Sequence record: PZ871099.1
Origin: a phage
Reading direction: 5' to 3' (one strand)
DNA length: 51,075 nucleotides
The notes beneath the pieces were generated by a model, which worked only from the letters and a program-made list of their open reading frames with translations, made no database searches and was not told where the DNA came from. This document shows positions 1 through 48,949 of this stretch, piece by piece. Position 1 is the stretch's first letter. Each line of letters begins with the position of its first letter. Made by a program: the position numbers and the translations under genes.

Positions 1-528
1 ATGGCTAAAAATGTTGAGCCTGCTGTAAAGGCATTAAATTTCAAAGAGTTATACAATAAAACTTATGGCGATATTGTTACGCTAAACAACCGCCACAAGT
101 ACACGCCGGAACAGGTTTTTGATATGGCGATCCGCTATTTCACTTGGGCCGAAGAGAATCACATCCAGGCGGCTGAAACTGCTTCCTTTCAGGGTGACGT
201 GTACGAGAGCAGAGTTTACAAGCCTCGCGTTTTCACGGTTAACGGATTCAGCTTGTATCTCGGCGTGACTGAGGCAGCCGTAAGCAAATGGCGTAAAGAG
301 CCTGGATTCTGCGATGTGATGGAGTTTGTTGATAAAGTAATTTACGAGCAAAAATTCCAGCTTGCGGCAAATAACATGATTAATGCTGGATTCATCGGTA
401 AAGAGATCGGAGTAGAGAAGCCAGCAACAGTGAGCGTTGAAGCGAGCGCGGCAGCTAATGCAAGCATTGACGCAGTAACTGCCGATGAGGTGAAAGAGGC
501 TGTGATTGATATTCTGGAGCAACTTTAA
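1..528 (+). CDS. terS: terminase small subunit
   Basis: 175 aa; HTH-like segment GFSLYLGVTEAAVSKWRK; stop overlaps start of the large terminase; RBS AAGGAGG lies at the window end, consistent with permuted ends. Confidence 0.7.
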   Translation: MAKNVEPAVKALNFKELYNKTYGDIVTLNNRHKYTPEQVFDMAIRYFTWAEENHIQAAETASFQGDVYESRVYKPRVFTVNGFSLYLGVTEAAVSKWRKEPGFCDVMEFVDKVIYEQKFQLAANNMINAGFIGKEIGVEKPATVSVEASAAANASIDAVTADEVKEAVIDILEQL

Positions 529-2096
529 TGATCATATGGGAAGATTTGACGGCGGCGCAAAAGCGAGCCATTAAAGAAATCAGTGAGCATTCATTCGAAA
601 AGATGATCAGAATCTGGTTCCAATTATTGCAGGGGCAAAAATTCCAGAGCAACTGGCATTTTAGCTTATTGTGCAGTGAGGTAGAGAAGATCATCAATGG
701 AGAGTCGCAGAATGTGATTTTCAACATTACGCCAGGTAGCGGCAAGACTGAGATTTTCTCGATCCACATGTCACCCTACGCGTCATTGAAAAGCCGGAAA
801 GTGAGAAACCTTAACCTTTCGTTTAGTGATGGCCTTGTGCAGCAAAACAGCAACCGGATAAAGGAGATTATTGGTTCTCCTGAGTGGCAAGAGCTATGGC
901 CTGGAAAACTGGCAAAGGCGAGCGCTAAAGATCTGATAGTCACCGAAGGCGGCAAGGTTAAATTGCAGGTTAACTCACGTTCTATTGGCGGCCAGGTAAC
1001 AGGTTTGCGTGGCGGCTATATGGATGATGGTTTTACTGGTATGCTGGTTCTTGACGATCCAGACAAGCCGGATGATATGCTTTCTAAGGTCAAGCGCGAG
1101 GCTATTCACATGCGGTTAAAAAACACAGTGCGATCGCGTCGAATGAAAGACACCACGCCAATTGTTATGGTGCAACAGCGACTACACGTTAATGATTCCA
1201 CCTGGTTCATGCTTAATGGCGGGATGGGTGGTATTGAGTTTAAAGTCGTGAGCATTCCGGCGCTGGTTACAAAAGAATACCGCGAAACACTTCCTGATTG
1301 GTTGAAGCCTGAATTTGATCGTGATGTTCTGTCAAGTAAGCCAGTGATGATAGATGGCGTTGCTCATTATTCATTTTGGCCTGCGAAGGAAAGCGCGGAG
1401 GAGTTGCTTGCATTGCGCAATGCAGATCCTTACACGTTCGCCAGCCAATACCAACAGCAACCAATCGCGCTTGGCGGGAACGTGTTTAAAACAGAGTGGT
1501 TCCAGTATTACGGCAGCGGCGAAAAGTGCGCACTACCAAAACCGGATCGCTTTGAATACACATTTATTACTGGAGATACCGCGCAGAAGGCCGGAGAGCT
1601 TAACGACTATTCGGTTTTTTGTTATTGGGGGATGTATAAGAATCGCGTTTACTTCATTGATGGCATTCGCGGAAAGTGGGAAGCGCCGGATCTTGAATTA
1701 AATTTTATTGCCTTCGTTAACCAGTGCTGGAAGCGCAATAAGGAGTGTGGCAGCTTGCGACGTATCCACATTGAGGATAAGGCCAGCGGCACGGGTTTGA
1801 TTCAGGGGGCCAAAAAGAAGATCCCGATTGATATAAATCCCGTTCAGCGAAGCAATGACAAGGTGACGCGAGCAATGGACGCCGCGCCAGTAATGAGGGC
1901 CGGACGTGTGGCGCTGCCAGAAAATCACCCCATGCTGCCTGAGATACTGGCAGAGGTTGCAGCATTCACTTTTGATGATTCTCATCCCCATGATGATATT
2001 GTCGATAATATAGTTGATGCTGTTAACGTCGAAATGAATTTGGCAGATGATCCGGTAGCAAGGATGAAAAAGCTGGCAGGTCTACGCAATAAATAG
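528..2096 (+). CDS. terL: terminase large subunit
   Basis: 522 aa; Walker A-like ITPGSGKTE; acidic C-terminal nuclease-like region; sits between terS and portal. Confidence 0.85.
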   Translation: MIIWEDLTAAQKRAIKEISEHSFEKMIRIWFQLLQGQKFQSNWHFSLLCSEVEKIINGESQNVIFNITPGSGKTEIFSIHMSPYASLKSRKVRNLNLSFSDGLVQQNSNRIKEIIGSPEWQELWPGKLAKASAKDLIVTEGGKVKLQVNSRSIGGQVTGLRGGYMDDGFTGMLVLDDPDKPDDMLSKVKREAIHMRLKNTVRSRRMKDTTPIVMVQQRLHVNDSTWFMLNGGMGGIEFKVVSIPALVTKEYRETLPDWLKPEFDRDVLSSKPVMIDGVAHYSFWPAKESAEELLALRNADPYTFASQYQQQPIALGGNVFKTEWFQYYGSGEKCALPKPDRFEYTFITGDTAQKAGELNDYSVFCYWGMYKNRVYFIDGIRGKWEAPDLELNFIAFVNQCWKRNKECGSLRRIHIEDKASGTGLIQGAKKKIPIDINPVQRSNDKVTRAMDAAPVMRAGRVALPENHPMLPEILAEVAAFTFDDSHPHDDIVDNIVDAVNVEMNLADDPVARMKKLAGLRNK

Positions 2097-2113
2097 CACT
2101 AATTGCTAAAAAG
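2092..2113 (+). promoter_or_regulatory. conserved intergenic motif copy, degenerate (AATAGCACTAATTGCTAAAAAG)
   Basis: Overlaps terL stop; followed by TATATAAT and a terminator hairpin. Confidence 0.5.
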
Positions 2114-2125
2114 TTATATAATCAA

Positions 2126-2150
2126 GGCTGGATTTTTCCAGCCTTTTTTA
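2126..2150 (+). terminator. rho-independent terminator after terL
   Basis: GGCTGGAtttttCCAGCC plus T-run. Confidence 0.7.
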
Positions 2151-2166
2151 TTATGGAGATTTGACT

Positions 2167-5349: not shown

Positions 5350-5859
5350 ATGGCTAAAATTGGAGCAAGTTATTTTGACACTATGGCGCGTGCGCTTCCT
5401 GGTCAGGTATCCGACACGTCAGCATATAACATCGACGGCGCTTACGTTCTTGACAAGGAAGACGGCATCCCAATCCTGGTTGGCGTGGCTGTTAAGCTAA
5501 AAGGCGTTGACTCAATGGGTAATAAGCTGATCGACGCTATTTCTGGTGGTGGTGATGTTCCTTATGGCGTTGGCGTTCGTTCGCACTTTCAAACTACGGC
5601 TGATAATGGTCGAATGGTTTATGAGGCTGGCGGCGGAATCAACGTTATGACTGAGGGCCGTGTCTGGATGATTGGCGATGATTCCGATAAAAGCAAAAAG
5701 CCAGAATATCGTGAGCCTGTAAAAATTGATGAAAACTCTGGCAAGGTGAAAAGTGCTGGCGCTATCAATACAAACTGGGTTTACACTGGCGATAAAACCA
5801 CTTTTGGAACTGGCAATAATATGTTGACTTTGTTTGAAGTTCAGGTCTTCCCAAGCTAA
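5350..5859 (+). CDS. capsid-associated structural protein (decoration-like, putative)
   Basis: 169 aa; shares YNIDG / GVAV / VW segments with next gene; strong terminator follows. Confidence 0.35.
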   Translation: MAKIGASYFDTMARALPGQVSDTSAYNIDGAYVLDKEDGIPILVGVAVKLKGVDSMGNKLIDAISGGGDVPYGVGVRSHFQTTADNGRMVYEAGGGINVMTEGRVWMIGDDSDKSKKPEYREPVKIDENSGKVKSAGAINTNWVYTGDKTTFGTGNNMLTLFEVQVFPS

Positions 5860-5890: not shown

Positions 5891-5909
5891 TTATGTAAGG
5901 AGAAATGAA

Positions 5910-6692
5910 ATGGCTAAAGATTATTCATCTGTTATGGGTCTTTCTTGCCCTGGTTGTTTGGTTGATTCTACTCGCTACAATATTGATGGTACTGGCGTTT
6001 GTGGTTCTGAATCGATCATTGCTGGTAAGGTTGTTTTCTTTAAGGAGAGAATCGGCGGTTACAACATATTTGTTGACCACAAAGAGGAGGGCGCTGTGGT
6101 TGCGGGTGTTGCGCTAAGGAGCAACATAACAACGACAGTTAACGAGGAAGACGGGTATTCCGACTACAAGGAAGGAGACGCCATCAACATTTTGACAAGA
6201 GGTGTTGTATGGTGTGTAACTCAAACAATTGAATCTCCCCCTGAGCATGGGGATCTTGTTTATGTTAACAATGATGGTTTTGTAGCAAAGAGTGATGGCG
6301 ATGAAATCGTCGATGGCTGGATTTTTACTGGTGACTTCTACAAGTTTGATGAAACAATAAACATAGTCGGAGTCAGAATAACGCCGCTTTATCATAGAAA
6401 ATATCTTCTCACTGGTGCGATCATTGAGGCTGAAAATGGATACATAGAGGGAACAGAGACGATCAATAACGTTCAATTAAAGGTAACAGTTGTTCCGACT
6501 TGGGCTGATGACAAAACGGGTCAGTGGACAATTACAAATCCACAAGATCCAAGTGTTGCCAGTGTTAGCCGCACAGGTCTTGTTGTTCCTACTGGTGTAG
6601 GAGGCAGAGTTAACGTCAACTGGACTGCTAATGATGGTTCTGGAGTTGCTAACCAGTTTGATATTGTATTTACGAAAACCGCTGGCGAATAA
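5910..6692 (+). CDS. capsid-associated structural protein with Ig-like C-terminal domain (paralog of previous)
   Basis: 260 aa; N-terminal part similar to 5350..5859; C-terminus beta-rich Ig-like (VTVVPT...VNVNWTANDGSG). Confidence 0.35.
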   Translation: MAKDYSSVMGLSCPGCLVDSTRYNIDGTGVCGSESIIAGKVVFFKERIGGYNIFVDHKEEGAVVAGVALRSNITTTVNEEDGYSDYKEGDAINILTRGVVWCVTQTIESPPEHGDLVYVNNDGFVAKSDGDEIVDGWIFTGDFYKFDETINIVGVRITPLYHRKYLLTGAIIEAENGYIEGTETINNVQLKVTVVPTWADDKTGQWTITNPQDPSVASVSRTGLVVPTGVGGRVNVNWTANDGSGVANQFDIVFTKTAGE

Positions 6693-6718
6693 CTAATAGC
6701 ATAAAAAAACATTGCACG

Positions 6719-6737
6719 TTTAACAAAAAGTGCTATC
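6719..6737 (-). promoter_or_regulatory. conserved intergenic motif copy (plus strand reads TTTAACAAAAAGTGCTAT)
   Basis: Upstream of the capsid gene. Confidence 0.5.
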
Positions 6738-6782: not shown

Positions 6783-7754
6783 ATGGCTAAAAAATATGAT
6801 GAACTAGATGCTACGATTGTAGCGAATCATTTGCAGATTCAGGGTGTTAAGACCGACGCTTCTGATATGGGTATTTGGACCGCTCAAGAGCTACACAAGA
6901 TCCGCTCTACCGCATACGAGAAAGAGTATCCGGCAGGTTCCGCGCTTCGCGTATTCCCTGTAACAAACGAGCTTTCTGATACTGACAAGACTTTCGAATA
7001 TCAGACTTTTGATAAGGTTGGCTACGCGAAAATTATCGCCGACTACACCGATGATCTGCCGACTGTGGACGCGTTGATGACTTCTGAGTTTGGCAAAGTG
7101 TTCCGCCTGGGTAACGCTTATCTGATCTCCATTGATGAGATTAAAGCAGGTCAGCGAACTGGCAAGAGCCTGTCAACTCGCAAGGCTAACGCTGCGCAAA
7201 ATGCACATGATCAGTTGATTAACTTCCTGGTGTTCAAAGGTTCCAAGCCTCACAAGATCGTTTCCGTTTTCGATCATCCTAACCTTGCGAAAATTGTTTC
7301 TGAAGGCTGGATGAGCAAGGACGGCAATACCAAGTTCCCGGAAGTGGCAAGCGATGAACTGGAGGCCGCAATCGAAACGATCGAGGAAGTAACCAAAGGT
7401 CAGCACCGCGCGACCAACATCCTGATCCCGCCGTCCATGCGTAAAGTCCTAACGGTTCGAATGGAAAATACCACTGAAAGTTATCTGGAATACTTCCAGA
7501 AGCAAAACGGCGGTATCACTATCGACTCTATCGCAGAGCTTGAGGATATTGACGGCAAAGGTACGAAAGGTTGCTTGGTTTACGAAAAAGATCCAATGAA
7601 CATGAGCATTGAGATTCCAGAAGCGTTTAACATGCTTCCGGCGCAGCCAAAAGACCTGCATTTCAAAGTTCCTTGCACTTCCAAGTGTACTGGCCTTACG
7701 ATTTATCGTCCGTTTACGATGGTGCTTATTACTGGCTTGAAAAAGTCAGCTTAA
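6783..7754 (+). CDS. major capsid protein (putative)
   Basis: 323 aa, size and position typical of an HK97-fold capsid protein; strong RBS and terminator. Confidence 0.55.
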   Translation: MAKKYDELDATIVANHLQIQGVKTDASDMGIWTAQELHKIRSTAYEKEYPAGSALRVFPVTNELSDTDKTFEYQTFDKVGYAKIIADYTDDLPTVDALMTSEFGKVFRLGNAYLISIDEIKAGQRTGKSLSTRKANAAQNAHDQLINFLVFKGSKPHKIVSVFDHPNLAKIVSEGWMSKDGNTKFPEVASDELEAAIETIEEVTKGQHRATNILIPPSMRKVLTVRMENTTESYLEYFQKQNGGITIDSIAELEDIDGKGTKGCLVYEKDPMNMSIEIPEAFNMLPAQPKDLHFKVPCTSKCTGLTIYRPFTMVLITGLKKSA

Positions 7755-8544: not shown

Positions 8545-8912
8545 ACTACAATGAGATTGCAAGAATGGCTACGGCTGGGATTAACTTTTTCAGCGACGCT
8601 AACGGTATGTTTAAGTGCATCACGCAGCAGGGAGGGGTTGAGATTATCGGCGGAGAGGAAGTTACCAAGCCGGAGATTTCAGTGATGATAAAGGGGCTTG
8701 TTAGATCTCCGAGGACTAGAGAGGTTGACGGTGAAACAATCCGAGTAACAGACAAGTTGGGGATATTCACCAATGAAACTGAGATCAAAAATGGTTATCA
8801 GATTGAAATTGATGGCGAACGTTATGTTGTCGTTGAAGCAAGGCCAGTCAGGCAGACTAACATCACGGCGGCTTATCGTCCGATATTAAGGAGGATTGCT
8901 GTGCATGGCTGA
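8532..8912 (+). CDS. head-tail joining protein (putative)
   Basis: 126 aa, overlaps neighbours, position. Confidence 0.35.
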
Positions 8913-9348
8913 TAACTATAAGATCAGGGAATTTCACGGTGATATAAGCAGGTGGATTGATTCAGTAAGCAGCGGCCTTGTTGATTGCGTTGAAATGTTC
9001 GCGACAAACGTCCACGAGGATCTTGTAAATCGCTCGCCAGTTGATACGGGCCGATATAAAGCCAACTGGCAGATAACAGCAAACAAGCCGCCGCTATATG
9101 CGCTCAACCAATACGATCGCGATGGTAGTAAAACCATTGCAGAAGGTAAGCGAGCAATATATGCAATTATGCGTGGCGGTGGCGCTGTGCGGTCAATCTA
9201 TTTTTCAAACATGCTCATTTACGCAAACGCGCTTGAATACGGGCATTCAAAACAAGCGCCGTCCGGCGTACTTGGAATCGTGGCGGTAAAGCTGCGATCT
9301 TATATGGCTAAGGCAATAAAGGATTCGAGGGCAAAAAATGCACTATGA
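8905..9348 (+). CDS. neck / tail-terminator-like protein (putative)
   Basis: about 147 aa from MADNYK; position. Confidence 0.35.
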   Translation: MADNYKIREFHGDISRWIDSVSSGLVDCVEMFATNVHEDLVNRSPVDTGRYKANWQITANKPPLYALNQYDRDGSKTIAEGKRAIYAIMRGGGAVRSIYFSNMLIYANALEYGHSKQAPSGVLGIVAVKLRSYMAKAIKDSRAKNAL

Positions 9349-10431: not shown

Positions 10432-10470
10432 ATTCCTGTAAAATCAATCTATCAAATAAATTAATTCCAC

Positions 10471-10490
10471 TTTTAACAAAAAGTGCTATA
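10471..10490 (-). promoter_or_regulatory. conserved intergenic motif copy (plus strand reads TTTTAACAAAAAGTGCTATAAGGAG)
   Basis: Abuts the RBS of the tail chaperone gene; contains TGcTATAAG. Confidence 0.5.
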
Positions 10491-10503: not shown

Positions 10504-10821
10504 ATGGCAAAGATGAAACTAACGTTAGGCCCACTGCCTGATTTTAAACTGCCTGTTTCTTTCGTGCTTCCAAATGGTGATGAGCAAGTTATTGTTTTCA
10601 CTGTGCGCCACAAGAAGGCAAGCGAGATTCACGAACGATACACGGCAGAAAAGCCGATGAGCGACGTAGAAATGATCACCTTCCTTGCTTCCGGTTGGGA
10701 TCTGGAAGATGAATTTAACGAGGAAAACGTTGCTAAATTGCTGGATTATTACCCTTCTGCGTCATTATCGCTGACTGGTCATTATATGAAAGCACTTGCG
10801 GGGCAGCGGGTAAAAAACTAA
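10504..10821 (+). CDS. tail assembly chaperone (lambda G-like)
   Basis: 105 aa, ends at slippery site A AAA AAC immediately before the stop; precedes tape measure. Confidence 0.7.
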   Translation: MAKMKLTLGPLPDFKLPVSFVLPNGDEQVIVFTVRHKKASEIHERYTAEKPMSDVEMITFLASGWDLEDEFNEENVAKLLDYYPSASLSLTGHYMKALAGQRVKN

Positions 10822-11177: not shown

Positions 11178-13859
11178 ATGGCTGAAAAATACGCTGGCCT
11201 AACGCTAGGCGTTGACGTGTCGCAGGTCAACAATGCTGTTAAATCATTGCAGCAATTCAAGAAGGCAAACGACGACGCAAAAAAAAGCGTTAATGAATTT
11301 GTTGATTCTGAGGTTGTTGCCCGACAGCAAGCAAAACAGCTTGCCGAAGAACTGGCGCGCCAGAAAGCAGAATTTAAGAAAATCCAGGAGTCAATTGATC
11401 CCACTGCATCAAAGATGGATAAGCTGCGAAAGGCAGCGACACAGCTTGATGCGCTATGGAAAAAGGGCGTTGTTCCTGATCAGACTTTTTTTGAGCTTGG
11501 GGCAATTCTTGAGACGCAGCAAAACAAGCTGATCGCAACCAAAAAAGCGATGACAGAGGAAGGTCGCGCGGCGCTTGAGGAATCAAAGAACAAGGCGCGT
11601 GCAGCGGAAGAGGCTAAAAAATTCATCCAGGCTTTGCGTGAGCAGGAAGAAGCAGCCGGAAAAAGCAAGTCTGAATTGCTGGAAATGAAAGCGGCACAGC
11701 TTGGAGTTAGCCAGGAGGCAGCACCTTACATCGCAAGGCTGAAAGAGCAGGAAAAGCAGATCCAGAAACTTGGGATTTCTACAGGCCAATACAAACAAGC
11801 AATGGCGCAATTGCCAATGCAGATCACAGACGTGGTGACTTCACTTGCTTCTGGTATGCCCGTTTGGTTGGTCGCAGTCCAGCAGGGTGGACAGATCAAG
11901 GATTCTTTTGGTGGCGCATCCAATGCTTTAAAAGCGTTGCTATCTTTCCTGAATCCGGTAAACGTGGCGTTTGGTTTGCTTTCCGGCACGCTGGCAATTG
12001 CTGCATATAATGCCCACAAAGCACAGACAGAGCTTGAAGCAATTAAAAAAACCGTTCAGGAAACAACTGGCTTGAGTGGTGAGTTTGCCGAAAAGATTGC
12101 TATAGGAATCCAGGAGCTTTCCGACAAGACAGGCGAAAGCGCCGAAGATCTGGCAAAGGCTTACATCACCACGAAAGACGGCGCGAGCGAGGCGATTAAA
12201 AAACTGGTTGACGTTGGAATGACTTATGATGACGCGAAAAAGAAAGTCAACGAGTACAAGGGCGCGTCTAGCTTTGTCAGCTTGAATAACGAAATTGCAA
12301 ACCACAAAAACAAAGTCCTTGAGTTGGGCGAGTCGTGGTATGAAGTTTTGAAAGCTAAGCGTGATTACGCTTCCCCGTCCGGCGGCCTGTTAGGTAAAGA
12401 GCTTGGCTATGTTAATCCTATGCTTAAGTTTGCACTTAACACTTATGAAGACATTGGAAAGGTCGTAAAAGATGCGAATAAGGACATGGCGGAGCGAGCG
12501 GAGCGAATCGACAAAGAAAACCTGTCATTAAACAGAGTGAGAGCGGCGCAAGAGGCTTTAAACAAAGCCATTGAGGATCAGAAGGGCGTGGCGCGTTCGG
12601 CTGATGAAGAACTGAAAAAGCGCGCGGCTGAAAACGTGGAGTTCAGACGCAAAGAGCTTGAGGAGATCAAGAAGCAGGAGCAGAAAAAGAAAGAGGCTAA
12701 AGGGGGAATAGTTCGCGGCCCTACTGAGCAGCTTGATAAAGAGTTGTACGTTTTAAAAGCGCAACTGGAAACTCTTAAAGAGCATCGCACTGTTAACGAT
12801 GTTATTTCTCGCCAGCGTAAATCTTTATGGAGCATCGAAAAGCAAATCGAGATCCTGGAGAATGCGCAGAGCAAGCGTAAATTGACCGGAGCGGAACAGG
12901 CGCTACTAAACGAGCAAAAAGCCGTTCTTGAAATGGCAAGACAAAAAGCGGAGCTAGGGGATCAGATTGTTTTGCAGGAGCGCAAAAACAAGCTGGAGCA
13001 AGATAGTCTTAAGTTTATCCGTGAAACGGAGGCGGCTATTGATGCGATTGGCCTTAAGCAACTTGGCTACACTGAAAAGCAGATCGAGCGTGAGCTAGAG
13101 TTGCGCAAGCTGCGCACCGACTACGAGGCGCAAGGCGGAAGCGTTAGCGACGAAGTTTTTCAGCAAATGGAGACGAAACTTAAGCTGTATTACCAGGCAC
13201 AAGACGAGGCGCAAGGCAACTGGTTAGCCGGAGCAAAGAACGCATGGGAGCTATTCGCGGAAGATGCAAACAATGCCTATGGCAATGTTCAGCAGATCGC
13301 AAGCGAGGCGTTAAACGGCCTTACAAACCAATTAGCGAATTTTATCGCTACTGGCAAGGCAAACTTTAAAGACTTCTCGACTGCTATCATCAAAATGATT
13401 ATTCAGATGATCACGAAAATGGTTGTCTTTAATGCGTTATCTGGCCTGATGGGTGGTCAAACCTGGACGATGGGGAGCTTGCTTAAGAATATTGGCGGAT
13501 TTGCTGGCGGTGGATACACTGGCGACGGCGGGAAGTATGAGCCAGCCGGAATTGTTCATAAGGGTGAATTTGTCATGACGAAGGAGGCAACGCAGCGTAT
13601 CGGAGTAGGCAACTTGTACCGCATGATGCGAGGCTATGCTAACGGCGGCGTTGTTGGTGGTTCCGGCTATACTGGCGGTGGCACTGTCACTGGTGGAGCA
13701 CCTCAATTTAACATCGGTGGGATTGATGTTAGCATCAATAACGGCAATGATCCGAAGGGTATCGAAACTGGTGTTAAGATGATCTTTACTGATATGATTA
13801 GACGTTCCTGTATGCAGGGCGGGGAGGTTTACGAATTTGTTATGAGCAAGCGAGGTTGA
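11178..13859 (+). CDS. tail tape measure protein
   Basis: 893 aa, extensive coiled-coil, Gly-rich C-terminal region, directly after G/GT. Confidence 0.9.
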   Translation: MAEKYAGLTLGVDVSQVNNAVKSLQQFKKANDDAKKSVNEFVDSEVVARQQAKQLAEELARQKAEFKKIQESIDPTASKMDKLRKAATQLDALWKKGVVPDQTFFELGAILETQQNKLIATKKAMTEEGRAALEESKNKARAAEEAKKFIQALREQEEAAGKSKSELLEMKAAQLGVSQEAAPYIARLKEQEKQIQKLGISTGQYKQAMAQLPMQITDVVTSLASGMPVWLVAVQQGGQIKDSFGGASNALKALLSFLNPVNVAFGLLSGTLAIAAYNAHKAQTELEAIKKTVQETTGLSGEFAEKIAIGIQELSDKTGESAEDLAKAYITTKDGASEAIKKLVDVGMTYDDAKKKVNEYKGASSFVSLNNEIANHKNKVLELGESWYEVLKAKRDYASPSGGLLGKELGYVNPMLKFALNTYEDIGKVVKDANKDMAERAERIDKENLSLNRVRAAQEALNKAIEDQKGVARSADEELKKRAAENVEFRRKELEEIKKQEQKKKEAKGGIVRGPTEQLDKELYVLKAQLETLKEHRTVNDVISRQRKSLWSIEKQIEILENAQSKRKLTGAEQALLNEQKAVLEMARQKAELGDQIVLQERKNKLEQDSLKFIRETEAAIDAIGLKQLGYTEKQIERELELRKLRTDYEAQGGSVSDEVFQQMETKLKLYYQAQDEAQGNWLAGAKNAWELFAEDANNAYGNVQQIASEALNGLTNQLANFIATGKANFKDFSTAIIKMIIQMITKMVVFNALSGLMGGQTWTMGSLLKNIGGFAGGGYTGDGGKYEPAGIVHKGEFVMTKEATQRIGVGNLYRMMRGYANGGVVGGSGYTGGGTVTGGAPQFNIGGIDVSINNGNDPKGIETGVKMIFTDMIRRSCMQGGEVYEFVMSKRG

Positions 13860-14274: not shown

Positions 14275-15036
14275 ATGGCTAATAAAGAATCAGGTAGAGT
14301 TGAATTTGAGAACTGCCTACAAAGTTTATACCCAGGCGAAATTATAACGCTCGTAGAGATTGATGGGACGAAGTTCGGAGCAAGTATTTACCGATTTCAC
14401 AATGAGAACATCTCTTATACTGCCGAAGAATTAATGCAAGCGCAGCAAACCGGAATCTTGCCGCCGAAAGATATTATTTTTCAGGGTGAGGTTTACGGAG
14501 CGCGGCCTTTCGGTGTGAGCGGGATTAACTTCACAAGTAACGGCAGGGCAGATAAGCCTCAGCTTATAGTGTCAAACCTTGACAGCAGGGTTAGCGCCAT
14601 GATCAGAAATTACAATGGCATGATGCAAGCAAAGGTGACTTTCTGGATTACGGCAAAGGAATTTATAGGAGAAGGCGGAGCAATCAAAGATGGCGCTTAC
14701 AGAAAATTGGTTTATTACATTGAGCGCCCAAGCCAGTATAATAGAGAGGTGGCGAAATTTGATCTGACATCGCCTTACGATATGGATGGATTAATGATCC
14801 CGCCGCGCATCACTCAAAGCGTTTGCTATTGGGCGCAAAGGGGGTGGTACAGGAGCGGAAAGGGTTGCTCTTATAACGGATCGGCAATGTTCGATAAAGA
14901 CAATAAGCCAGTAACAGATCCATCACAAGACTATTGCGCCGGAACTGTAACGGCTTGCAAATTGAGATTCGGTCAGCAAAACGAGTTGGATTTCGGCGGT
15001 TGCGCGGTGGCGTCACTGCTACGGAGGAATCAATAA
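14275..15036 (+). CDS. minor tail protein (lambda L-like)
   Basis: 253 aa; C-terminal cysteine cluster as in gpL-type proteins; position. Confidence 0.6.
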   Translation: MANKESGRVEFENCLQSLYPGEIITLVEIDGTKFGASIYRFHNENISYTAEELMQAQQTGILPPKDIIFQGEVYGARPFGVSGINFTSNGRADKPQLIVSNLDSRVSAMIRNYNGMMQAKVTFWITAKEFIGEGGAIKDGAYRKLVYYIERPSQYNREVAKFDLTSPYDMDGLMIPPRITQSVCYWAQRGWYRSGKGCSYNGSAMFDKDNKPVTDPSQDYCAGTVTACKLRFGQQNELDFGGCAVASLLRRNQ

Positions 15037-16959: not shown

Positions 16960-19900
16960 ATGGCTAAATATATGATAAGCGGCAGTAAGGGCGGAAGCAA
17001 AAAGCCATACGTGCCAAAAGAGATGGAAGATAACCTGATCTCGATAAACAAGATTAAAGTTTTGCTGGCTGTATCTGATGGCGAGTGCGATCCAAATTTC
17101 ACGTTGCGCGATCTTTATCTTGATGATGTTCCGGTTATTGCCAGCGATGGCACTGTTAACTACGAGGGAGTTACGGCTGAATATCGACCAGGTACGCAGA
17201 CGCAAGATTACATCCAGGGGTTTACTGACACATCAAGCGAGGTGACAGTTTCGCGAGATATTACAGCAGACAATCCCTATATTATCTCTGTAACAAACAA
17301 AAATCTTTCCGCAATCAGAATCAAGATTCTGATGCCAACTGGCATAAAGCAGGAGGATAACGGCGATCTTGTTGGTGTAAGGGTTCAATATGCCGTAGAT
17401 ATGGCTGTTGATGGCGGTTCTTATAGCGAGGTTATGAGAGATGTAATTGACGGCAAGACAAGATCAGGATATGACCGCAGCAGAAGGATTGATCTTCCTA
17501 AGTTTGATGAGCGCGTTTTAATCAGGGTCAAGCGACTGACTCCAGACAGCACATCTTCAAAGGTGACTGATAAAATCAAACTGCAAAGTTACGCTGAGGT
17601 TGTGGATGCAAAATTCCGTTATCCTCTGACTGGCCTTGTATTCGTAGAATTTGACAGCGAATTGTTTCCTACGCAAATCCCTAACATTTCTATAAAAAAG
17701 AAATGGAAGATTATTAACGTGCCAAGCAACTACGATCCAATATCAAGAGAATATCACGGGTCATGGGATGGTACTTTTAAAAAAGCGTGGTCAAATAATC
17801 CTGCTTGGGTGCTTTATGATCTGGTAACGAATCAGCGTTATGGGCTTGACCAGCGAGAGCTAGGAATACAGATCGACAAGTGGAGCTTATATGAGGCAGG
17901 AGTTTACTGTGATCAGAAAGTTCCAGACGGTAAAGGCGGTACAGAGCCTCGCTACCTATGCGATGTTGTGATTCAGAATCAAGTTGAGGCTTATCAGCTA
18001 ATCCGTGACATTTGCTCAATCTTTCGCGGAATGAGCTTTTGGAATGGTGAGAGCTTATCAATCGTGATTGATAAGCCGCGCGATCCATCATACGTGTTTA
18101 CTAATGAAAACGTCATCAACGGTGATTTTCAGTACACAACCGCAAGCGAAAAAAGCATGTACACGCAGTGTAACGTGACGTTTGACGACGAACAAAACAT
18201 GTATCAACAGGACGTAGAGGGGGTTTTTGATACTGAGGCGGCATTACGATTTGGATACAATCCAACAAGCATTACAGCGATCGGGTGTACACGCAGGAGC
18301 GAAGCGAATCGTCGCGGTCGGTGGGTTTTGAAAACAAACCTTAGAAGCACTACTGTAAACTTTGCTACTGGACTGGAGGGGATGATTCCATCAATAGGTG
18401 ATGTGATTGCTATCGCCGATAATTTTCAGAGCAGCAACCTAACGTTAAACCTATCGGGCCGAGTGATGGAAGTTTCAGGATTGCAGGTTTTCGTTCCGTT
18501 TAAGGTTGATGCTCGTCCTGGTGATTTTATTATCATCAACAAGCCGGACGGCAAGCCAGTTAAGCGCACGATTTCAAAGGTGAGCGCAGACGGAAAAACC
18601 ATTGAGTTAAATATTGGATTTGGTTTTGATGTTAAGCCTGATACTGTTTTTGCGATTGACCGTACTGACCTTGCGTTGCAGCAATACGTTGTGACAACTA
18701 TCAGCAAGGGTGATGACGAAAATGAGTTTACCTATTCAATAACGGCTGTAGAGTACGATCCGAACAAATACGACGAGATTGATTATGGAGTAAACATTGA
18801 TGACAGGCCGACTTCAATTGTTCAGCCTGACGTAATGGCAGCGCCTGAGAACGTGCAAATCTCATCTTATTCTCGCGTCGTGCAGGGTGTCAGCGTTGAG
18901 ACTATGGTTGTGTCGTGGGAAAAAGTGCCTTATGCGTCACTGTATGAAATGCAATGGCGAAAAGGTGATGGCAACTGGCTGAATACGCCGCAGACAGCTA
19001 ACAAAGAGATAGAGGTAGAAGGAATTTATTCTGGTAACTACCAAGTAAGGGTTAGATCTGTTTCTGCAAGCGGTAACACTTCCCCGTGGTCAAAGATTGC
19101 AACCGCAACCCTGACAGGTAAAGTTGGCGAGCCAGGAGCGCCGATTAATCTTACAGCTTCTGATAATGAAGTTTTTGGCATTCGTGTTAAATGGGGTATG
19201 CCGGAAGGATCAGGCGATACGGCTTACATTGAGCTTCACCAATCGCCAGACGGAACGGTTGAAAACTCAAGCCTGCTTACGCTGATTCCATATCCTCAAT
19301 ATGAGTATTGGCATAGCACGTTACCAGCGGGTCAAGTTGTATGGTATAGAATCCGTAGCGTTGACAGGATCGGCAATGTTTCCGGCTGGACTGACTTTGT
19401 TCGCGGCATGGCGTCAGATGATGTTGAATCTGTTTTAGGCGACATTCTGGACAAGATTTTTGATACCGAAGCGGGTCAAGAAATCAAAGAGAACGCCATA
19501 GACAGTGCCAACAAAATCAAAGACCAGGCGCAATCAATCATCCAGAACGCATTGGCAAACGATGCTGATGTGAAATGGACGAGAGTACAAAACGGAAAGC
19601 GAAAGGCTGAATATGGTCACGCTCTTGAGCTTATCGCCAACGAAACGGAGGCGCGAGTAACTCAAATCGAAGAGTTAAAGGCTTCAATTGATGACGATAT
19701 AGTTTCAAGTATCAAAACCGTTCAGGAAGCGATTGCCAACGAATCAGAGACGCGAGCTACTCAAGTTCAGCAGCTTGATTCTAAATTTACGAAGGAAATA
19801 GACGGCGTAAAACGAGATACGGCTGCAAGCATTGGCGAGGTAAGGCAAACCATTACCAATGAATCAGAAGCGCGCGCTCAGGCCGTTCAGCAGCTTGACG

Positions 19901-21183: not shown

Positions 21184-21462
21184 TTACCCCCAAAAAGTAT
21201 ATATATATCTTGAGTCAGATCCAGAAAGTCCGCTCCATGTAACGGTATCACCACTTACACCTAAACTTGGAGCGCCAGGATCTCCTCCGCGCCACGAATT
21301 CATTCCAACATATATTGCTTTCAACGACTTACCTGGCGGCCTGTTTGAGTAGGTCTTACTGCCAGATGATTGAGTAAATTTATCCAAGAAAAAAACTGGA
21401 GTTAAAAGGCCAGTAACATTTCTACCTTGCTCATCATATATTGCATACCCATATTCAGCCAT
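21184..21462 (-). CDS. hypothetical protein
   Basis: 92 aa; shares G(Y/I)A(I/F)Y motif with the downstream gene; stop 2 nt before the next ATG. Confidence 0.3.
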   Translation of the reverse strand: MAEYGYAIYDEQGRNVTGLLTPVFFLDKFTQSSGSKTYSNRPPGKSLKAIYVGMNSWRGGDPGAPSLGVSGDTVTWSGLSGSDSRYIYTFWG

Positions 21463-27179: not shown

Positions 27180-27200
27180 AATAGCACTTTTTGCTAATGA
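27180..27200 (+). promoter_or_regulatory. conserved intergenic motif copy, degenerate (AATAGCACTTTTTGCTAATG)
   Basis: Its complement TTAGCAAAAAGTGCTATTTAGGAGG abuts the tail fiber RBS. Confidence 0.45.
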
Positions 27201-28818: not shown

Positions 28819-30816
28819 ATGATTCCAAATATCGAAAAACAAATATCAGCGTTAGGCGAGGCAGTAATAAAAAGCATCCAAGAGCGATTCACTGTTGGCA
28901 ATATAGTGCCATATCCTTATCAGTGCGTTGCGTATGCCGAGATCGCAAAGCGCATGAAAAACTATGAGCATCCTTTCTTCGTTAAGGCTTCTGTGTCGGC
29001 TGGCAAAACTTTGATGTTTGCAATGGTTGCGGCGCAATGCCGCAAAATGGGGTTGAAAATGATGGTCCTTGCTCGCCAGGCTGAAATTGTTGATCAGGAT
29101 TCGGAAGAGATCAGCAATCTTGGCGTGCCAAACTCAATCTATTGCGCAGGACTGAAAACAAAAAGCGCATACTTTCCGATCGTAGTCGGTTCTGAGGGCA
29201 CTGTAGTAAACGGATTGTTTAAGTCGTTAGGTGACTATGTTCCGCACGTTATCGGTATTGATGAATGTCACCAGGTGGATTGGGAGGATCTCGCGGACGC
29301 GATAGAAAATAATGAATCTTACCAGCAGATGACCACTAAGAAGGATTTGCCTGTACTGATTGGAGAAGAACAGCAATTTGATTCCAATGGCGATCCAATG
29401 TTCGGAACAGGGCGCACACAGTACACCGTAATAATCATGGAAATGATGCGCAGGTGTCGCGAGGCATACGGGCACGAATTGCGAATATTCGGTATGACTG
29501 GATCTGAGTTTCGCGGCGTGGTTCCAATACTGGTTGAAGATAAGAACAAAAAGGGATTCTGGCGTGAGCAGGTGACTAACATAGACACAAACTACTTAAT
29601 AAAATTCGGTTCGGTAGTGCCAACAAATTTCGGCGACGTAGGCGACCTGGGGTATGACCTTTCAGAGTTCGAAGCCAGTAGCGAGGATGGCGTTTCAGAC
29701 TTTGACGCTAAAACATTGCGCAAGATGGAAGAAAAGATCCATCAAGACGCAACAATGACACAGAAAATCATGGCTAAAGTCCATGAGATATGCAAAGACA
29801 GGAACGGAGTTTTAGTTACATGCGCAGGGGAAAGACACTGCAAGGAGGCCGCCGCCGCACTGCCGCAAGGCGTTGAATACAGGATCATAACTGGAAAAAC
29901 TGGAGATAATCAGCGTAAAGAGTGGCTGAGGGAGGCATACGAGGGGAAAGTAAAATACATCTTCCAGGTACAGGCGCTTACCACTGGCGTTAACGTTCCG
30001 TTTTGGGATACTTCGGTAATACTTAGAAAGATAGGATCTCTAACATTGCTTATCCAGCTTTTGGGGCGCGGTATGCGACTGCTTAAGCAATGGCACATTG
30101 AGCAGGGATTCAAGAAAAAAGACCATCTTGTATTGGATTTTGCCGGTACTATGGATGAGTTAGGGGATTTGTATTTCGATCCAATCCTTGAGCAAGCGCA
30201 ATTCCAAAAGAGATTTACAAACGGGAAAGAGCCTAAGACTTGTCCGATATGTGGAACGCTAAACAGCTTTTACGCTCGCCGATGTATGCACGTAGACGAT
30301 AACGGGAAGAGATGCGAGCATTTTTGGACTTACAGAATTTGCGAGGACCAGGTAGATCCGAGAACGAAAAAGATAATCAAGCGCGGTTGCGGAACAAAAA
30401 ACGACGTGGTGGCGAGGGTGTGCCGTTGTTGCGATATTTCTCTTGTCGATCCTAACGAGAAGTTAAGCGGTAAGCACTACACCAAAAACGATTGGTGCAA
30501 CGTTAAATCTTTCCGCGTTGATATGACGAAAAATCAGAAAGGAATTGTTTTTTGCTATGAGCTTGAGGCCAACGGCGACACGTTCAAGGCATACGAAAGA
30601 TTTTTCCCTGAGTCAGAAAGCAACATTTGCCGGACGATATGGAGAAAAATAGCATTGCAGCACATACCGGATCGCAAGATTGCTGGTATGGTGGCGAGCT
30701 ATAGAAATGCGCGTAAAATAATGTCATACGCTCATCACATCATGCCGCCTGTACGCGTAACGCACCGCAAAAACGGCAAAGGTGAGGATAACATTGCAAA
30801 ACGGGAGTTTGTTTAA
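28819..30816 (+). CDS. SF2 DNA helicase (DEAD/DExH-like)
   Basis: Walker A SVSAGKTL, DExH-like GIDECHQV, Cys4 cluster near the C-terminus. Confidence 0.8.
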   Translation: MIPNIEKQISALGEAVIKSIQERFTVGNIVPYPYQCVAYAEIAKRMKNYEHPFFVKASVSAGKTLMFAMVAAQCRKMGLKMMVLARQAEIVDQDSEEISNLGVPNSIYCAGLKTKSAYFPIVVGSEGTVVNGLFKSLGDYVPHVIGIDECHQVDWEDLADAIENNESYQQMTTKKDLPVLIGEEQQFDSNGDPMFGTGRTQYTVIIMEMMRRCREAYGHELRIFGMTGSEFRGVVPILVEDKNKKGFWREQVTNIDTNYLIKFGSVVPTNFGDVGDLGYDLSEFEASSEDGVSDFDAKTLRKMEEKIHQDATMTQKIMAKVHEICKDRNGVLVTCAGERHCKEAAAALPQGVEYRIITGKTGDNQRKEWLREAYEGKVKYIFQVQALTTGVNVPFWDTSVILRKIGSLTLLIQLLGRGMRLLKQWHIEQGFKKKDHLVLDFAGTMDELGDLYFDPILEQAQFQKRFTNGKEPKTCPICGTLNSFYARRCMHVDDNGKRCEHFWTYRICEDQVDPRTKKIIKRGCGTKNDVVARVCRCCDISLVDPNEKLSGKHYTKNDWCNVKSFRVDMTKNQKGIVFCYELEANGDTFKAYERFFPESESNICRTIWRKIALQHIPDRKIAGMVASYRNARKIMSYAHHIMPPVRVTHRKNGKGEDNIAKREFV

Positions 30817-31235
30817 TGGCTATAACTGATAAAGGCGATTATCTTGAGTTTTACGAAAGAGATCCAACCGACACTAGAAAGGAAGTTAATCACCAGATAG
30901 ATAGTTTTCAGTGGTTGACTTATGCTCATCCTTATTTGCTGGCGTGGCATACGGTAAACGAGAATGAGAAGTCTAAAGCAACGGCGATGATTGATCAGCA
31001 GTCCGGCTTGGTTAAGGGAGTAAGCGATTTCATCATCCTGATTGGTTTAAACGGAAAATACCCCTTTGCAGCGATTGAGATCAAACGAGTTAATAAATCA
31101 GGCAAGGGGAAAGCATCACCAGTCAGCGATGAACAAAAGGCTTTTTTGCGTCGAGTTCGCAGCTTAGGAGGATTCGCTGCGGTCGCCTACGGATTTAATC
31201 AGTTTAAGTTGGCTATTGAATACATGCTTAAATAG
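30816..31235 (+). CDS. VRR-NUC domain nuclease
   Basis: 139 aa; PD-(D/E)XK-like core GVSDFIILIGLNGKYPFAAIEIK...DEQKAFLRRVRSLGGFAAVAY. Confidence 0.65.
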   Translation: MAITDKGDYLEFYERDPTDTRKEVNHQIDSFQWLTYAHPYLLAWHTVNENEKSKATAMIDQQSGLVKGVSDFIILIGLNGKYPFAAIEIKRVNKSGKGKASPVSDEQKAFLRRVRSLGGFAAVAYGFNQFKLAIEYMLK

Positions 31236-31251: not shown

Positions 31252-31314
31252 TGGCGCGATGGATTGCGCCATAATTCAATAACACGAGATAACTTTTAAT
31301 AGCGGAGAAATGAA

Positions 31315-32040
31315 ATGGCTAAAGATATTTTAGATAAAGACACCCATGACGCATTCGTTAGCTTTGAGCAGTTGGAGAGAGAAACATTTATAGGGAATGC
31401 CCTTGCAACTGGAGGCCATTACCAGGCAGTAAAGCCAAATCAATATTATAAGGTAAGCGGCAACCGATACGCTGGAAGCACCACGCCGGACGTTGTGCGC
31501 GATATGTGGAGCACGCCTCAAGAGATTGTGGAGTGGATGGAATCAGAATTTGGTGAATACGATCTCGACGCGGCAGCAAGCCAGGAAAACGCAGTTTGCG
31601 AGAAGTTCTATAGCAAGAAAACAAACTGCTTAAAGCGTTGGTGGGGTAGCAACAAGCACGTATGGCTTAACCCGCCGTACATCAACCCAACTCCATTTAT
31701 CAAGAAAGCAATTGAGCAAATGGAGCACAACAACCAAATTGATGTTTTGTTGCCAGCCGACAACTCTACAGCATGGTTTTATGAGGCGCAGAAAAACGCG
31801 GCTGAAATCATCTGGATCACTGGTGAGGTTTACGAAGAGGGTGGAGTAGAATACTCCCGCACCGGAAGAATCGCCTTTGTGTCTGGATTGACTGGCGAGC
31901 CTGTACAGGGCAACAACAAGGGGAGCGTGATTTTTGTCATGCGAAAACTTAAAGAAGGCGAGGAGCAGAAAACGCGATACGTTAAGATCAGCGATATTTG
32001 CCCTTCTGTAACCGAACGCCGCGCGCGCAAACGGAGCTAA
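31315..32040 (+). CDS. dam: DNA N6-adenine methyltransferase (Dam-like)
   Basis: 241 aa; catalytic NPPY motif (HVWLNPPYINP). Confidence 0.8.
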   Translation: MAKDILDKDTHDAFVSFEQLERETFIGNALATGGHYQAVKPNQYYKVSGNRYAGSTTPDVVRDMWSTPQEIVEWMESEFGEYDLDAAASQENAVCEKFYSKKTNCLKRWWGSNKHVWLNPPYINPTPFIKKAIEQMEHNNQIDVLLPADNSTAWFYEAQKNAAEIIWITGEVYEEGGVEYSRTGRIAFVSGLTGEPVQGNNKGSVIFVMRKLKEGEEQKTRYVKISDICPSVTERRARKRS

Positions 32041-32557: not shown

Positions 32558-32789
32558 GCAAGGAAGAGATGCGGTATGGAATCACGCTAAAGAATGCGGT
32601 ATTGCCGACGATATAAAGAAGATCGCGCAATACTTTGATATTGCAGATGTGAGCATAATTAGCGGCGACAAGATGACTTTCCTCAAGGAAAGGCCGCGAA
32701 AAATGGTAAGAGTTCCAGCAGTTCCAACAAAAATTGATTTCAAAGAGGCAATGGCTAAAATCCGAGAGCCTCGCAAATATTATAAATGA
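32547..32789 (+). CDS. hypothetical protein
   Basis: Start moved to MKVEQGRD. Confidence 0.3.
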   Translation: MKVEQGRDAVWNHAKECGIADDIKKIAQYFDIADVSIISGDKMTFLKERPRKMVRVPAVPTKIDFKEAMAKIREPRKYYK

Positions 32790-39830: not shown

Positions 39831-40043
39831 TCATTTCTTATTTTTCAGCTTAAATTTATGACCTGGAACACCAGCGCCAATATAGCCATCGTTGTATTCC
39901 ATCAAATAAAGGTGAAGACCATTATCTGAAATTACATGAGGATCTTCTTTGAGATTTCCCATTAGTGGATATTCTTTTCCGCGCGTAAATTTCCAAATTG
40001 AGTTATAAGTTTCTACGCATTTAAGTTTTAATTGCTTTGCCAT
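39831..40043 (-). CDS. hypothetical protein
   Basis: 70 aa. Confidence 0.3.
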   Translation of the reverse strand: MAKQLKLKCVETYNSIWKFTRGKEYPLMGNLKEDPHVISDNGLHLYLMEYNDGYIGAGVPGHKFKLKNKK

Positions 40044-41521: not shown

Positions 41522-41775
41522 TTTTTCTTCTCCTGCAATAAGCAAACATCATTGATAAAATCAGCACGGCCCTTAATGTTGCTGATGTGGAACGTCTTTT
41601 CAGCGTACAGGCCATCACCTTCAATCACGATCATTACGCGAGTCGGTTTATTCACGGGCGCACATGAAAAGAGTGGGCGCGCCGGAAGAAATTTAGTAGC
41701 CACATCCAGGTTAGCCCTGGCGGCCCTGCAAAACGCCTCCGCCAGATCCAAATCATTTTCGGTAATCACCGCCAT
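41509..41775 (-). CDS. hypothetical protein (paralog of 41312..41521)
   Basis: 88 aa. Confidence 0.35.
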   Translation of the reverse strand: MAVITENDLDLAEAFCRAARANLDVATKFLPARPLFSCAPVNKPTRVMIVIEGDGLYAEKTFHISNIKGRADFINDVCLLQEKKKCWM

Positions 41776-42399: not shown

Positions 42400-42680
42400 A
42401 ATCCTCTATAATACATTGAAAATAAAGATTATTTATTTATATATATCTATAATGTTTTCTTTTTGTTCTCACTGTTACAGTGCTTTTTGTTGGTTATGGT
42501 GTGGTTGTGTGTGGGCATATATGGATAGTTGCGCGCGCGGCGGATTGCATATGTATATATACTTTTTCCGGCGGATTGCGTTAACAGCGTGAACAGAAAA
42601 ATAACAGCCCTGAAATCAACAACTTGCGCATGATTTTGTAGTTTTTCGATATTGGTAACGTTTTGAATACAACAAAAACA
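42400..42680. repeat. GT/AT-rich non-coding module, copy B
   Basis: Same blocks in the same order as copy A; spurious ORF 42245..42592 overlaps it. Confidence 0.6.
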
Positions 42681-43536: not shown

Positions 43537-43722
43537 ATGGCACGTCGCATCACCAAAGACCTTAAAGTCCTGAACAAAGAAAACGTAGTTAAAATCCTGG
43601 TTATCTGGGGCTACAACGAAGAAACAGCAAAGCAGAAGGTCGAGGCGGGTTACGACCTGGCTGTAAAAGCAATGCCAAACGACGACGCAAAAGGCATTGC
43701 AAACTATGTGGCTTTCTTTTAA
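43537..43722 (+). CDS. hypothetical protein
   Basis: 61 aa, motif copy upstream. Confidence 0.3.
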   Translation: MARRITKDLKVLNKENVVKILVIWGYNEETAKQKVEAGYDLAVKAMPNDDAKGIANYVAFF

Positions 43723-46410: not shown

Positions 46411-46674
46411 ATGGCTAACAAGATCGAATTTTTTAAAGCGGTAGACATTATTGATGGCGCTCCGAGCTTCTTTGCGATCCATTCTATTGACGGCAAGGAT
46501 ATTGGGTATAACGTTATCCTTAGCGATGGAGTATCAAAACTTAGTGACCTGGTGGGTCGAGTTGCGTCAGACGGCAAATGCTCATGCCCCGATTCGCAAC
46601 GAGAGCCACGCCGCCGCGACATGGTAGAGCCTGTTCTGCTTTACACCCTGGTAGTAGAAGGAGAAAATAAATGA
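46411..46674 (+). CDS. hypothetical protein
   Basis: 87 aa. Confidence 0.3.
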   Translation: MANKIEFFKAVDIIDGAPSFFAIHSIDGKDIGYNVILSDGVSKLSDLVGRVASDGKCSCPDSQREPRRRDMVEPVLLYTLVVEGENK

Positions 46675-48109: not shown

Positions 48110-48208
48110 CAATAACGCAACGAATCCTAAGCCACCTTTTGATTTTCATTCCGCAATGATTGCGGTATTATCAATGCTACTTTTTCTTTATAGCATGAGG
48201 GCGCTACT

Positions 48209-48457
48209 ATGGTTTTTAACGCATTGAAACGACTGTTTAAGCCGGAATACCGGATCGTATTTTGCCGCGACTGTTCTACTTATCATGTGCAGCGACGCAG
48301 CTTAGGCGGCAATTGGCACTATGTTACAGACGACTTTTTCGGCATCATTGCCACTGAATTTAAGTATTACAGTGATGCTTATATGTACGTGAAGAAGCGC
48401 CACCGCTTACGCAAGTGTCGTTTTTCCGTGCTGATTCACGTTAATGATTGTTACTGA
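48209..48457 (+). CDS. hypothetical protein
   Basis: 82 aa, Cys-containing. Confidence 0.25.
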   Translation: MVFNALKRLFKPEYRIVFCRDCSTYHVQRRSLGGNWHYVTDDFFGIIATEFKYYSDAYMYVKKRHRLRKCRFSVLIHVNDCY

Positions 48458-48464
48458 GGTGAAA

Positions 48465-48647
48465 ATGAAAACTGGTATTATTATTCTTTTCCTGATCCTT
48501 TTCGGTAGCCATTTAACCATTAACTATGAGGGTATTATGGCCTTTTGGGGCAACTTGATGATTTTTGCCGCTGGTTCAATTACTGGCTACTCTGACGGGA
48601 AAAAGGACGGCGTTCGCAAGATGCTGATGGGACTTAAACAAAAATAA
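48465..48647 (+). CDS. small membrane protein (putative)
   Basis: Start at MKTGIIILF after RBS GAGGTGA. Confidence 0.3.
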   Translation: MKTGIIILFLILFGSHLTINYEGIMAFWGNLMIFAAGSITGYSDGKKDGVRKMLMGLKQK

Positions 48648-48658
48648 GGGGATCTGAA

Positions 48659-48949
48659 ATGGCAAACAAAACTTACCGCAAACTACTGGTTAACGCTTTT
48701 GAAAACATCGCGCAGTGTAACAAGTGGAACGACTCTAAACACTCGCCAGTCACAATGAAGCGCGCCGGATTCAAAAATGCTCGTTCATGGGCGAGAGCTT
48801 TCGCAGCTTGCTATATGCCGGATGGTGGACTAGGAGCGATGAACGATTTTTTGATCAACATGATAGAGGAAGCTGCGCGAGAGGATCGACCGCTGACACA
48901 GCGAGATTTTGATGATTTCGCGCGCGATGAGCTTTACTATCTGGGCTAA
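48659..48949 (+). CDS. hypothetical protein
   Basis: 96 aa. Confidence 0.3.
   Translation: MANKTYRKLLVNAFENIAQCNKWNDSKHSPVTMKRAGFKNARSWARAFAACYMPDGGLGAMNDFLINMIEEAAREDRPLTQRDFDDFARDELYYLG

Follow-up and report, generated by a model that had tools for sequence, protein, structure and literature searches.

A recurrent alanine-second start pattern in the T1-like coliphage genome PZ871099.1 and its likeness to the starts of highly expressed host genes

The first codons of highly expressed Escherichia coli genes carry a well described signature. Tats, Remm and Tenson reported in 2006 that in these genes codon 2 is GCU in 15% of cases and GCA in 11%, where each makes up 3% in the full gene set, while GCC and GCG are never used there; alanine at the second position reaches 26% (9% over all genes) and lysine at the third 23% (11% over all genes), with A-rich codons at positions 3-5 (PMC1397820). 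According to Liponska et al. (2025), A-rich first six codons lead to more 70S initiation complex, mRNA stability and expression in E. coli (PMC12661326); flow-seq work also ties A-rich first codons to more protein in that bacterium (PMC7337518), and initiation complexes prefer ANN and GNN second codons (PMC4962057). At the protein level, the rule of N-terminal methionine excision concerns Ala, Gly, Ser, Thr, Pro, Val and Cys as second residues. Here we analyse a start pattern of the same kind, ATG-GC(T/A)-AAN, which recurs on genes of the phage sequence record PZ871099.1 (51,075 nucleotides; this whole stretch is called the window in what follows).

The pattern is best read as the sharpest part of an ordinary host-adapted start region and not as a discrete element. 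It has been described before, in the host as well as in highly expressed genes from across life. No mention of this start context in Drexlerviridae was found in the literature searched.

Frequency and placement of the start pattern

The first 20 kb of the window are 97-99% identical to Escherichia phages JLBYU10, Poky and atuna. Poky is a member of the genus Warwickvirus (Drexlerviridae, Tempevirinae); its annotation runs collinear with the window, shifted by 58 bases. Judged by its sequence, the window holds the whole genome of a T1-like coliphage of the same genus, and its record was opened at the ATG of terS. Since the record is written from that ATG, the terS Shine-Dalgarno sequence (SD) lies at the other end, the final 40 bases holding AAGGAGG and a −10-like GGTATAAT. 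The gene model, made from the list of open reading frames, strand blocks, SD scoring and the Poky annotation, comprises 83 genes that cover 91% of the sequence.

The strict form of the pattern, ATGGCWAAH (W, A or T; H, A, C or T), occurs 15 times in the window with both strands counted, against 5.1 +/- 2.4 copies in dinucleotide shuffles (n = 100), and 15 or more copies appeared in 0/100 shuffles. Nine of the 15 are gene starts with an SD at proper spacing (Table 1). The other six, a number matching chance, are distributed as follows: those at 28151 and 28198 (+) are antisense to minus-strand genes (primase and regulator), those at 29770 (+) and 27794 (−) encode in-frame internal Met-Ala-Lys within the helicase and the primase, that at 32751 (+) is not in the reading frame of the phosphoesterase gene, and that at 45883 (−) is antisense. 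Since the non-start copies stand at background frequency, the excess of the 9-mer sits entirely at gene starts. The original prediction, that at least ten genes begin ATGGC(T/A)AA(A/C/T), was right as to recurrence and slightly high as to number. Among the genes that it named, terS, the two capsid-associated genes, the capsid gene, the L-like and J-like genes and dam do carry the strict pattern; the tail chaperone begins ATGGCAAAG, which encodes Met-Ala-Lys but ends in G, and the tape measure begins ATGGCTGAA, Met-Ala-Glu. The relaxed form ATGGCWAAN is found on 11/83 genes, the additional two being the tail chaperone (10504) and a minus-strand gene at 40043 that had been overlooked.

Alanine is the second residue of 18/83 genes (22%), against 8.0% of internal residues (p = 8e-5). 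When the internal codon pairs of the window are taken as the null, 0.67 GCW-AAN starts are expected and 11 observed (binomial p = 9e-11); for starts that are exactly ATGGCTAAA the figures are 0.13 and 6 (p = 4e-9). A frequency no higher than codon usage predicts, the outcome named beforehand as fatal to the pattern, is thus not what was found. The pattern follows 11/83 initiator ATGs and 4/368 internal in-frame ATGs (p = 3e-6). Over all genes codon 3 encodes Lys in 15/83 and is AAN in 24/83, and Ala-2 co-occurs with AAN-3 in 11 genes where the separate start-site frequencies give 4.6 (p = 3e-4), an excess that is expected if both belong to one class of strong start regions. Hence, the enrichment is real and chance is excluded as its source.

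Recurrence itself is the sole point that speaks for the 9-mer as a DNA or RNA recognition site which overlaps starts and serves a non-ribosomal factor, such as a regulator, a small RNA or a nuclease. We give this next to no chance, because away from starts the 9-mer is at chance frequency on both strands (8/1726 non-start ATGs), because its degeneracy is that of codons (GCT/GCA, then AAA/AAG/AAT/AAC) and because related phages replace it by other small-residue codons. The flanks of the motif have only SD-like and A-rich features in common. A discrete repeated element, whether binding site or mobile cassette, was rejected on the chance rate of non-start copies and the lack of conservation in the flanks.

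Codon choice and comparison with the host, related phages and T7

Synonymous choice is biased within the pattern. The Ala-2 codons of the window are GCT (12), GCA (4), GCG (2) and GCC (0); GCT thus accounts for 12/18, against 29% of internal Ala codons (p = 1e-3), and GCT plus GCA for 16/18, against 58% internally (p = 0.006). The ratio of AAA to AAG is 15:3 at codon 2 (p = 0.009) and 11:4 at codon 3, the internal share of AAA being 54%. The same tendency extends to codons 2-6 of all 83 genes, where G+C at third codon positions (GC3) is 31% against 47% internally (p = 1e-11), A amounts to 41% against 29%, and G at third positions to 13% against 24%. Ranked by use as second codon, AAA comes first (15 genes) and GCT next (12). 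The motif is the peak of a genome-wide A-rich, GC3-poor bias at the 5′ end of coding sequences.

Two further properties set the genes in question apart. Pairing between SD and anti-SD is stronger in Ala-2 genes (p = 0.005), and GCW-AAN starts are concentrated in the structural module, with 7/22 genes against 4/61 elsewhere (p = 0.006), among them the major capsid protein and the two paralogous capsid cement proteins. Ala-2 reaches 41% in that module.

The original prediction had proposed a comparison of start contexts with those of the host and of related phages. In 159 gene starts from annotated E. coli K-12 regions, taken as ordinary host genes, Ala-2 occurs in 14 (8.8%), GCW at codon 2 in 5% and GCW-AAN in 1/159 (0.6%); the difference from the 18/83 Ala-2 genes of the phage is significant (p = 0.005). 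In the str-S10-spc-alpha region, which was used as the high-expression set, 12/32 translation genes have Ala-2 and 4/32 begin with GCW-AAN; rplE adds a GCG-AAA start, and secY opens with exactly ATGGCTAAA. Ala-2 is found in 0/24 of their low-expression neighbours. The rate of GCW-AAN in the phage, 13%, is the same as in the ribosomal-protein operons of the host and about 20 times that of ordinary host genes (p = 4e-5).

The likeness to the signature of Tats et al. (PMC1397820) is close: the phage has GCU or GCA at codon 2 with GCC and GCG avoided, Lys at codon 3 and A-rich codons thereafter, and its Ala-2 frequency of 22% (41% in the structural module) compares with 26% in highly expressed and 9% in all host genes. 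There are, however, differences. The phage joins Ala-2 with AAN-3 above the product of their separate frequencies; Asn (AAT/AAC) participates, whereas Tats et al. saw no Asn excess; and the pattern stands here in a phage genome and is read from its sequence. The A-richness of codons 2-6 over the 83 phage genes, where G and GC3 are low as well, resembles that of the published six-codon enhancer (PMC12661326, PMC7337518), which, in contrast to the sequence statistics presented here, was characterized in reporter experiments; a folding test of codons 2-3, described below, lent the phage no support.

Against this background, the idea that mutational bias at the 5′ ends of genes yields A/T-rich first codons without selection has little chance of being right. 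A 2025 paper cautions that unusual mutation rates at the 5′ ends of bacterial genes may mimic selection and mislead tests for it (PMC12725619). A general A/T bias would, however, give no G-C at bases 4-5 ahead of A-rich codons, and it predicts no link to SD strength, to the structural module or to the pattern of highly expressed host genes.

Orthologous starts were located for each window gene in 170 loci of related phages, fetched from IMG/VR around the capsid, the helicase and one early gene. Counted over distinct start regions, Ala-2 is nearly fixed in some genes (5350, 40/41; 8905, 56/56; 10504, 43/49; the tail fibre at 27163, 57/58), and orthologues of the 7812 gene have it in 27/30, the window itself reading MSK there. 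In other genes Ala alternates with Ser or Thr: terS has A in 13 and S in 21, the 5910 gene A in 13 and S in 16, the 14275 gene A in 25 and T in 13, and the major capsid protein T in 36, S in 7 and A in 3. Wherever Ala-2 occurs across the relatives the codons are again GCT (289) and GCA (175), with GCG (24) and GCC (8) rare, so that GCT/GCA make up 464/496 (94%). In all clades about half of the structural-module starts have A, S, T or G at position 2, Ala-2 amounting to about 30%. The protein body is conserved, and the two or three codons in front of it are often a variable addition, as in dam (MAKD or MKD), the J-like gene (MAKYMISG or MISG) and the 5910 gene (MAKDYS or MSDY). Such first codons turn over quickly among related phages. 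GCW-AAN starts number 7/22 in the structural module of the window lineage, 3-5 in related genera and 1-2 in distant clades. A peculiarity of the window lineage was nevertheless rejected, since Ala-2 is about 30% everywhere and the difference in counts rests on small numbers and is probably not significant.

Like starts could also derive from paralogy or from the copying of a recombined start region, which the relatives render very improbable. The 5350 and 5910 proteins are indeed paralogues (phrog_1989, Pfam Phage_cement), and the start regions of the 5910 gene and dam (5899-5921 and 31304-31326) are identical over 23 bases, GGAGAAATGAAATGGCTAAAGAT. The remaining motif genes, in contrast, have differing functional assignments or no family match. 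Orthologues of 5350 and 5910 mostly begin differently from each other (MAQ/MAI versus MSD), and MAK was therefore not inherited by both. Within the 23-mer, the 5910 start of the nearest relative has one base changed, and distant orthologues have unrelated start regions. In view of that one-base difference, recombination was discarded as the origin of the 23-nt identity, which is taken as coincidence or convergence of two constrained starts.

The unrelated phage T7 has Ala-2 in 11/51 genes, always as GCT or GCA and including genes 0.3, 2.5, 9 and 10, the products of which are abundant. The Ala-2 genes of T7 include those for the capsid, scaffold and ssDNA-binding proteins (gene 10 begins ATGGCTAGC and gene 2.5 ATGGCTAAG); the leader of gene 10 is used in expression vectors. 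T7 differs in that GCW-AAN is present on 2/51 genes, against 11/83 in the window.

Some motif genes also bear on annotation. In Poky (30756, against 31315 in the window) dam is annotated from an upstream ATG (ATGGCTTTTAAT...). That ATG is in frame only through one extra A in the spacer of Poky, and no such start exists in the window. What the relatives conserve is the start ATGGCTAAAGAT, which in both the window and Poky has a GGAG SD ahead of it. The dam start of Poky is therefore probably mis-annotated, and the pattern supports the SD-led ATGGCTAAAGAT. The adjacent paralogous cement or decoration genes (5350-5859 and 5910-6692) match Pfam Phage_cement and XM1_gp53 and phrog_1989, the second having an extra C-terminal Big_2 Ig-like domain; Poky labels both scaffolding proteins, a label that the family matches do not support.

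Probable selection on the start region and on the second residue

Our preferred explanation, which we consider likely, is that the start pattern of this phage, which depends on the ribosomes of its host, reflects selection on the translation start region, probably joined by a preference for a small residue in second place. A strong start region would combine a good SD, an A-rich spacer, AUG, a GCU or GCA second codon and A-rich Lys/Asn codons. Lacking its own translation machinery, the phage would have its genes compete for E. coli ribosomes, and many of them, those of the virion module above all, would have converged on the start pattern of the most expressed genes of the host. A-rich, G-poor first codons may keep the start single-stranded and thereby favour the 70S initiation complex, while a GCU or GCA second codon might be favoured at initiation or at the first peptide bond; Ala would in addition supply the small residue that permits removal of the initiator Met. 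From these features of the sequence we infer that the start pattern may raise protein yield.

The original prediction had tentatively ascribed the pattern to selection for efficient initiation. Enrichment, synonymous bias, the link to the SD and the match with the host agree with it, but initiation is inseparable here from early elongation, and a preference at the protein level has to be admitted. The interpretation is only partly supported, because all the evidence is correlational. Besides the caution about mutation rates cited above, several observations weigh against the preferred explanation: (i) when positions −30 to +33 of each motif gene (n = 11) were folded with every synonymous variant of codons 2-3, the native codons ranked 3-8 of 8, no better than random; (ii) the codon adaptation index relative to the translation genes of the host does not set motif genes significantly apart from the rest (p = 0.15); (iii) motif and likely abundance are mismatched, since the motif is missing from the portal and from the major tail protein (9742, MHL), and the low-copy terS, J-like and L-like proteins, as well as dam, carry it; and (iv) Tats et al., who discuss Met cleavage, concluded that selection acts on the amino acid Ala and not on a particular codon (PMC1397820). 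As the native codons are not the least structured, the preference for GCT and AAA is not explained by simple folding energy; the start regions of motif genes are marginally less structured than the others (p = 0.06).

The last of these points favours a reading purely at the protein level, in which a small second residue (Ala) ensures cleavage by methionine aminopeptidase and leaves a stabilizing N-terminus, Lys/Asn being incidental or having some N-terminal function. The exchange of Ala, Ser and Thr between orthologues agrees with it, since Met can be removed ahead of any of the three, as does the presence of A, S, T or G at position 2 in about half of the structural-module starts of every clade; Ala-2 in all 11 motif genes conforms to the excision rule. 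That rule is, however, silent on synonymous choice and on the third codon, both of which are biased in the phage. Selection on the protein would leave the wobble bias unexplained (GCT/GCA 94% against 58% internally), together with the preference of AAA over AAG, the depletion of GC3 in codons 2-6 and the link to SD strength. As a full explanation it is rather unlikely; most likely, the protein-level effect contributes beside the mRNA-level effect and not in its place.

A more specific proposal, for which we hold out very little hope, is that the Ala-Lys/Asn N-terminus exposed after Met removal would be a protein-level signal common to T1-like virion and assembly proteins. It might, for example, be a substrate of a host N-terminal modifying enzyme, as for the Ala-Lys ribosomal proteins, or an assembly mark. 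Were it so, the start codons would be shaped by that function and not by translation alone.

With selection on the start region as the preferred explanation, a virulent coliphage copies the start-region pattern of the most expressed genes of its host, which poses no new question about translation. Its practical use is small: the pattern helps to pick start codons in the annotation of T1-like phages, for instance ATG 16960 for the J-like gene.

Table 1. Gene starts with alanine as second residue, and copies of the 21-nt intergenic repeat, in the window. Strict, ATGGCWAAH; relaxed, ATGGCWAAN with G at the last position; Ala-2, alanine second without AAN.
Feature	Start	Class	Position	Strand	SD and remarks
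terS	ATGGCTAAA (MAK)	strict	1..9	+	AAGGAGG at window end, about 51062-51068 (end ...CTAAAGGAGGATTAATA)
Capsid cement protein, 169 aa	ATGGCTAAA	strict	5350..5358	+	TAAGGAG 7 nt upstream; Pfam Phage_cement
Second capsid cement protein, 260 aa, Big_2 domain	ATGGCTAAA	strict	5910..5918	+	TAAGGAG; paralogue of 5350
Major capsid protein	ATGGCTAAA	strict	6783..6791	+	GGAGG
Ala-2 gene	ATGGCTGAT (MAD)	Ala-2	8905..8913	+	orthologues mostly ATGGCTAAT/AAC
Tail assembly chaperone	ATGGCAAAG (MAK)	relaxed	10504..10512	+	TAAGGAG
Tape measure protein	ATGGCTGAA (MAE)	Ala-2	11178..11186	+	
L-like minor tail protein	ATGGCTAAT (MAN)	strict	14275..14283	+	AAGGAGG
J-like tail tip/fibre protein, 1192 aa	ATGGCTAAA	strict	16960..16968	+	weak, AAGG; length equals the protein annotated in Poky
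92-aa protein	ATGGCTGAA (MAE)	Ala-2	21454..21462	−	
Tail fibre, 872 aa	ATGGCGATT (MAI)	Ala-2	27155..27163	−	Ala-2 in 57/58 distinct orthologue start regions
VRR-NUC-like protein	ATGGCTATA (MAI)	Ala-2	30816..30824	+	
DNA adenine methyltransferase (dam)	ATGGCTAAA	strict	31315..31323	+	GGAG
Hypothetical protein, 70 aa	ATGGCAAAG (MAK)	relaxed	40035..40043	−	GGAG
88-aa protein	ATGGCGGTG (MAV)	Ala-2	41767..41775	−	
61-aa protein	ATGGCACGT (MAR)	Ala-2	43537..43545	+	
Hypothetical protein, 87 aa	ATGGCTAAC (MAN)	strict	46411..46419	+	
Hypothetical protein, 96 aa	ATGGCAAAC (MAN)	strict	48659..48667	+	TAAGG
21-nt repeat copies			28742, 31231, 32301, 43460, 43923, 44915, 46335, 48948	+	weaker copies: 2092, 16344
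21-nt repeat copies			21805, 35562, 37724, 38398, 40316, 40822, 42126	−	

An upstream intergenic repeat and other features of the genome

A 21-nt intergenic repeat, AATAGCACTTTTTGTTAAAAC, is present in 16 copies within 3 mismatches, the chance expectation being none (Table 1). In most cases a start codon follows 73-84 nt downstream, and repeat and gene have the same direction. In phage TLS this repeat (aaATAGCACnnnTTGnTAAAA) has been reported about 76 nt ahead of gene starts, and the genome paper counts its role among the questions still to be answered (PMC11447400). Of 341 distinct copies, taken from the window and related phages, 74% have a −10-like hexamer (second base A, sixth base T; CATAAT, TATTAT, TATATT, TATAGT) exactly 19 nt downstream of ...TAAAA; at other offsets the figure is about 5%. 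A conserved CA-rich leader (CATCGAAACGA...) follows many copies. The fixed distance of the hexamer suggests that the repeat may be the upstream half of a class of promoters with a non-canonical −35 region.

Three copies are inverted with respect to adjacent late genes, at 6717-6737 (−), 10470-10490 (−) and 27180-27200 (+), whereas the TLS paper records co-directional copies only (PMC11447400). The first is found immediately 5′ of the major capsid gene, ahead of a hairpin and a T-run, the second abuts the SD of the tail chaperone, and the third abuts that of the tail fibre gene at 27163 (−). Two of the three are oriented into bidirectional terminator hairpins close by.

Between the tail assembly genes and the J-like gene, the window has an HNH_3 endonuclease gene (16406-16882, +; Pfam E = 1e-15), preceded by a weak copy of the 21-nt repeat. 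Poky lacks it, its J-like gene coming next without interruption; the gene probably represents the insertion of a free-standing homing endonuclease. The two divergent strand-switch regions hold T-rich stretches of low GC (21900-22010 and 42420-42470) in which short direct repeats (TTTATTTATTTATGTATGTATATTTG...) occur and which could be replication or regulatory regions; GC is 0.39 across 20-22 kb. The tail fibre gene (−) contains internal degenerate repeats at 26283-26750, with units at multiples of 21 nt, and the C-terminal part of the J-like gene (19727-19939) a 93-nt duplication, 120 nt apart and of 71% identity.

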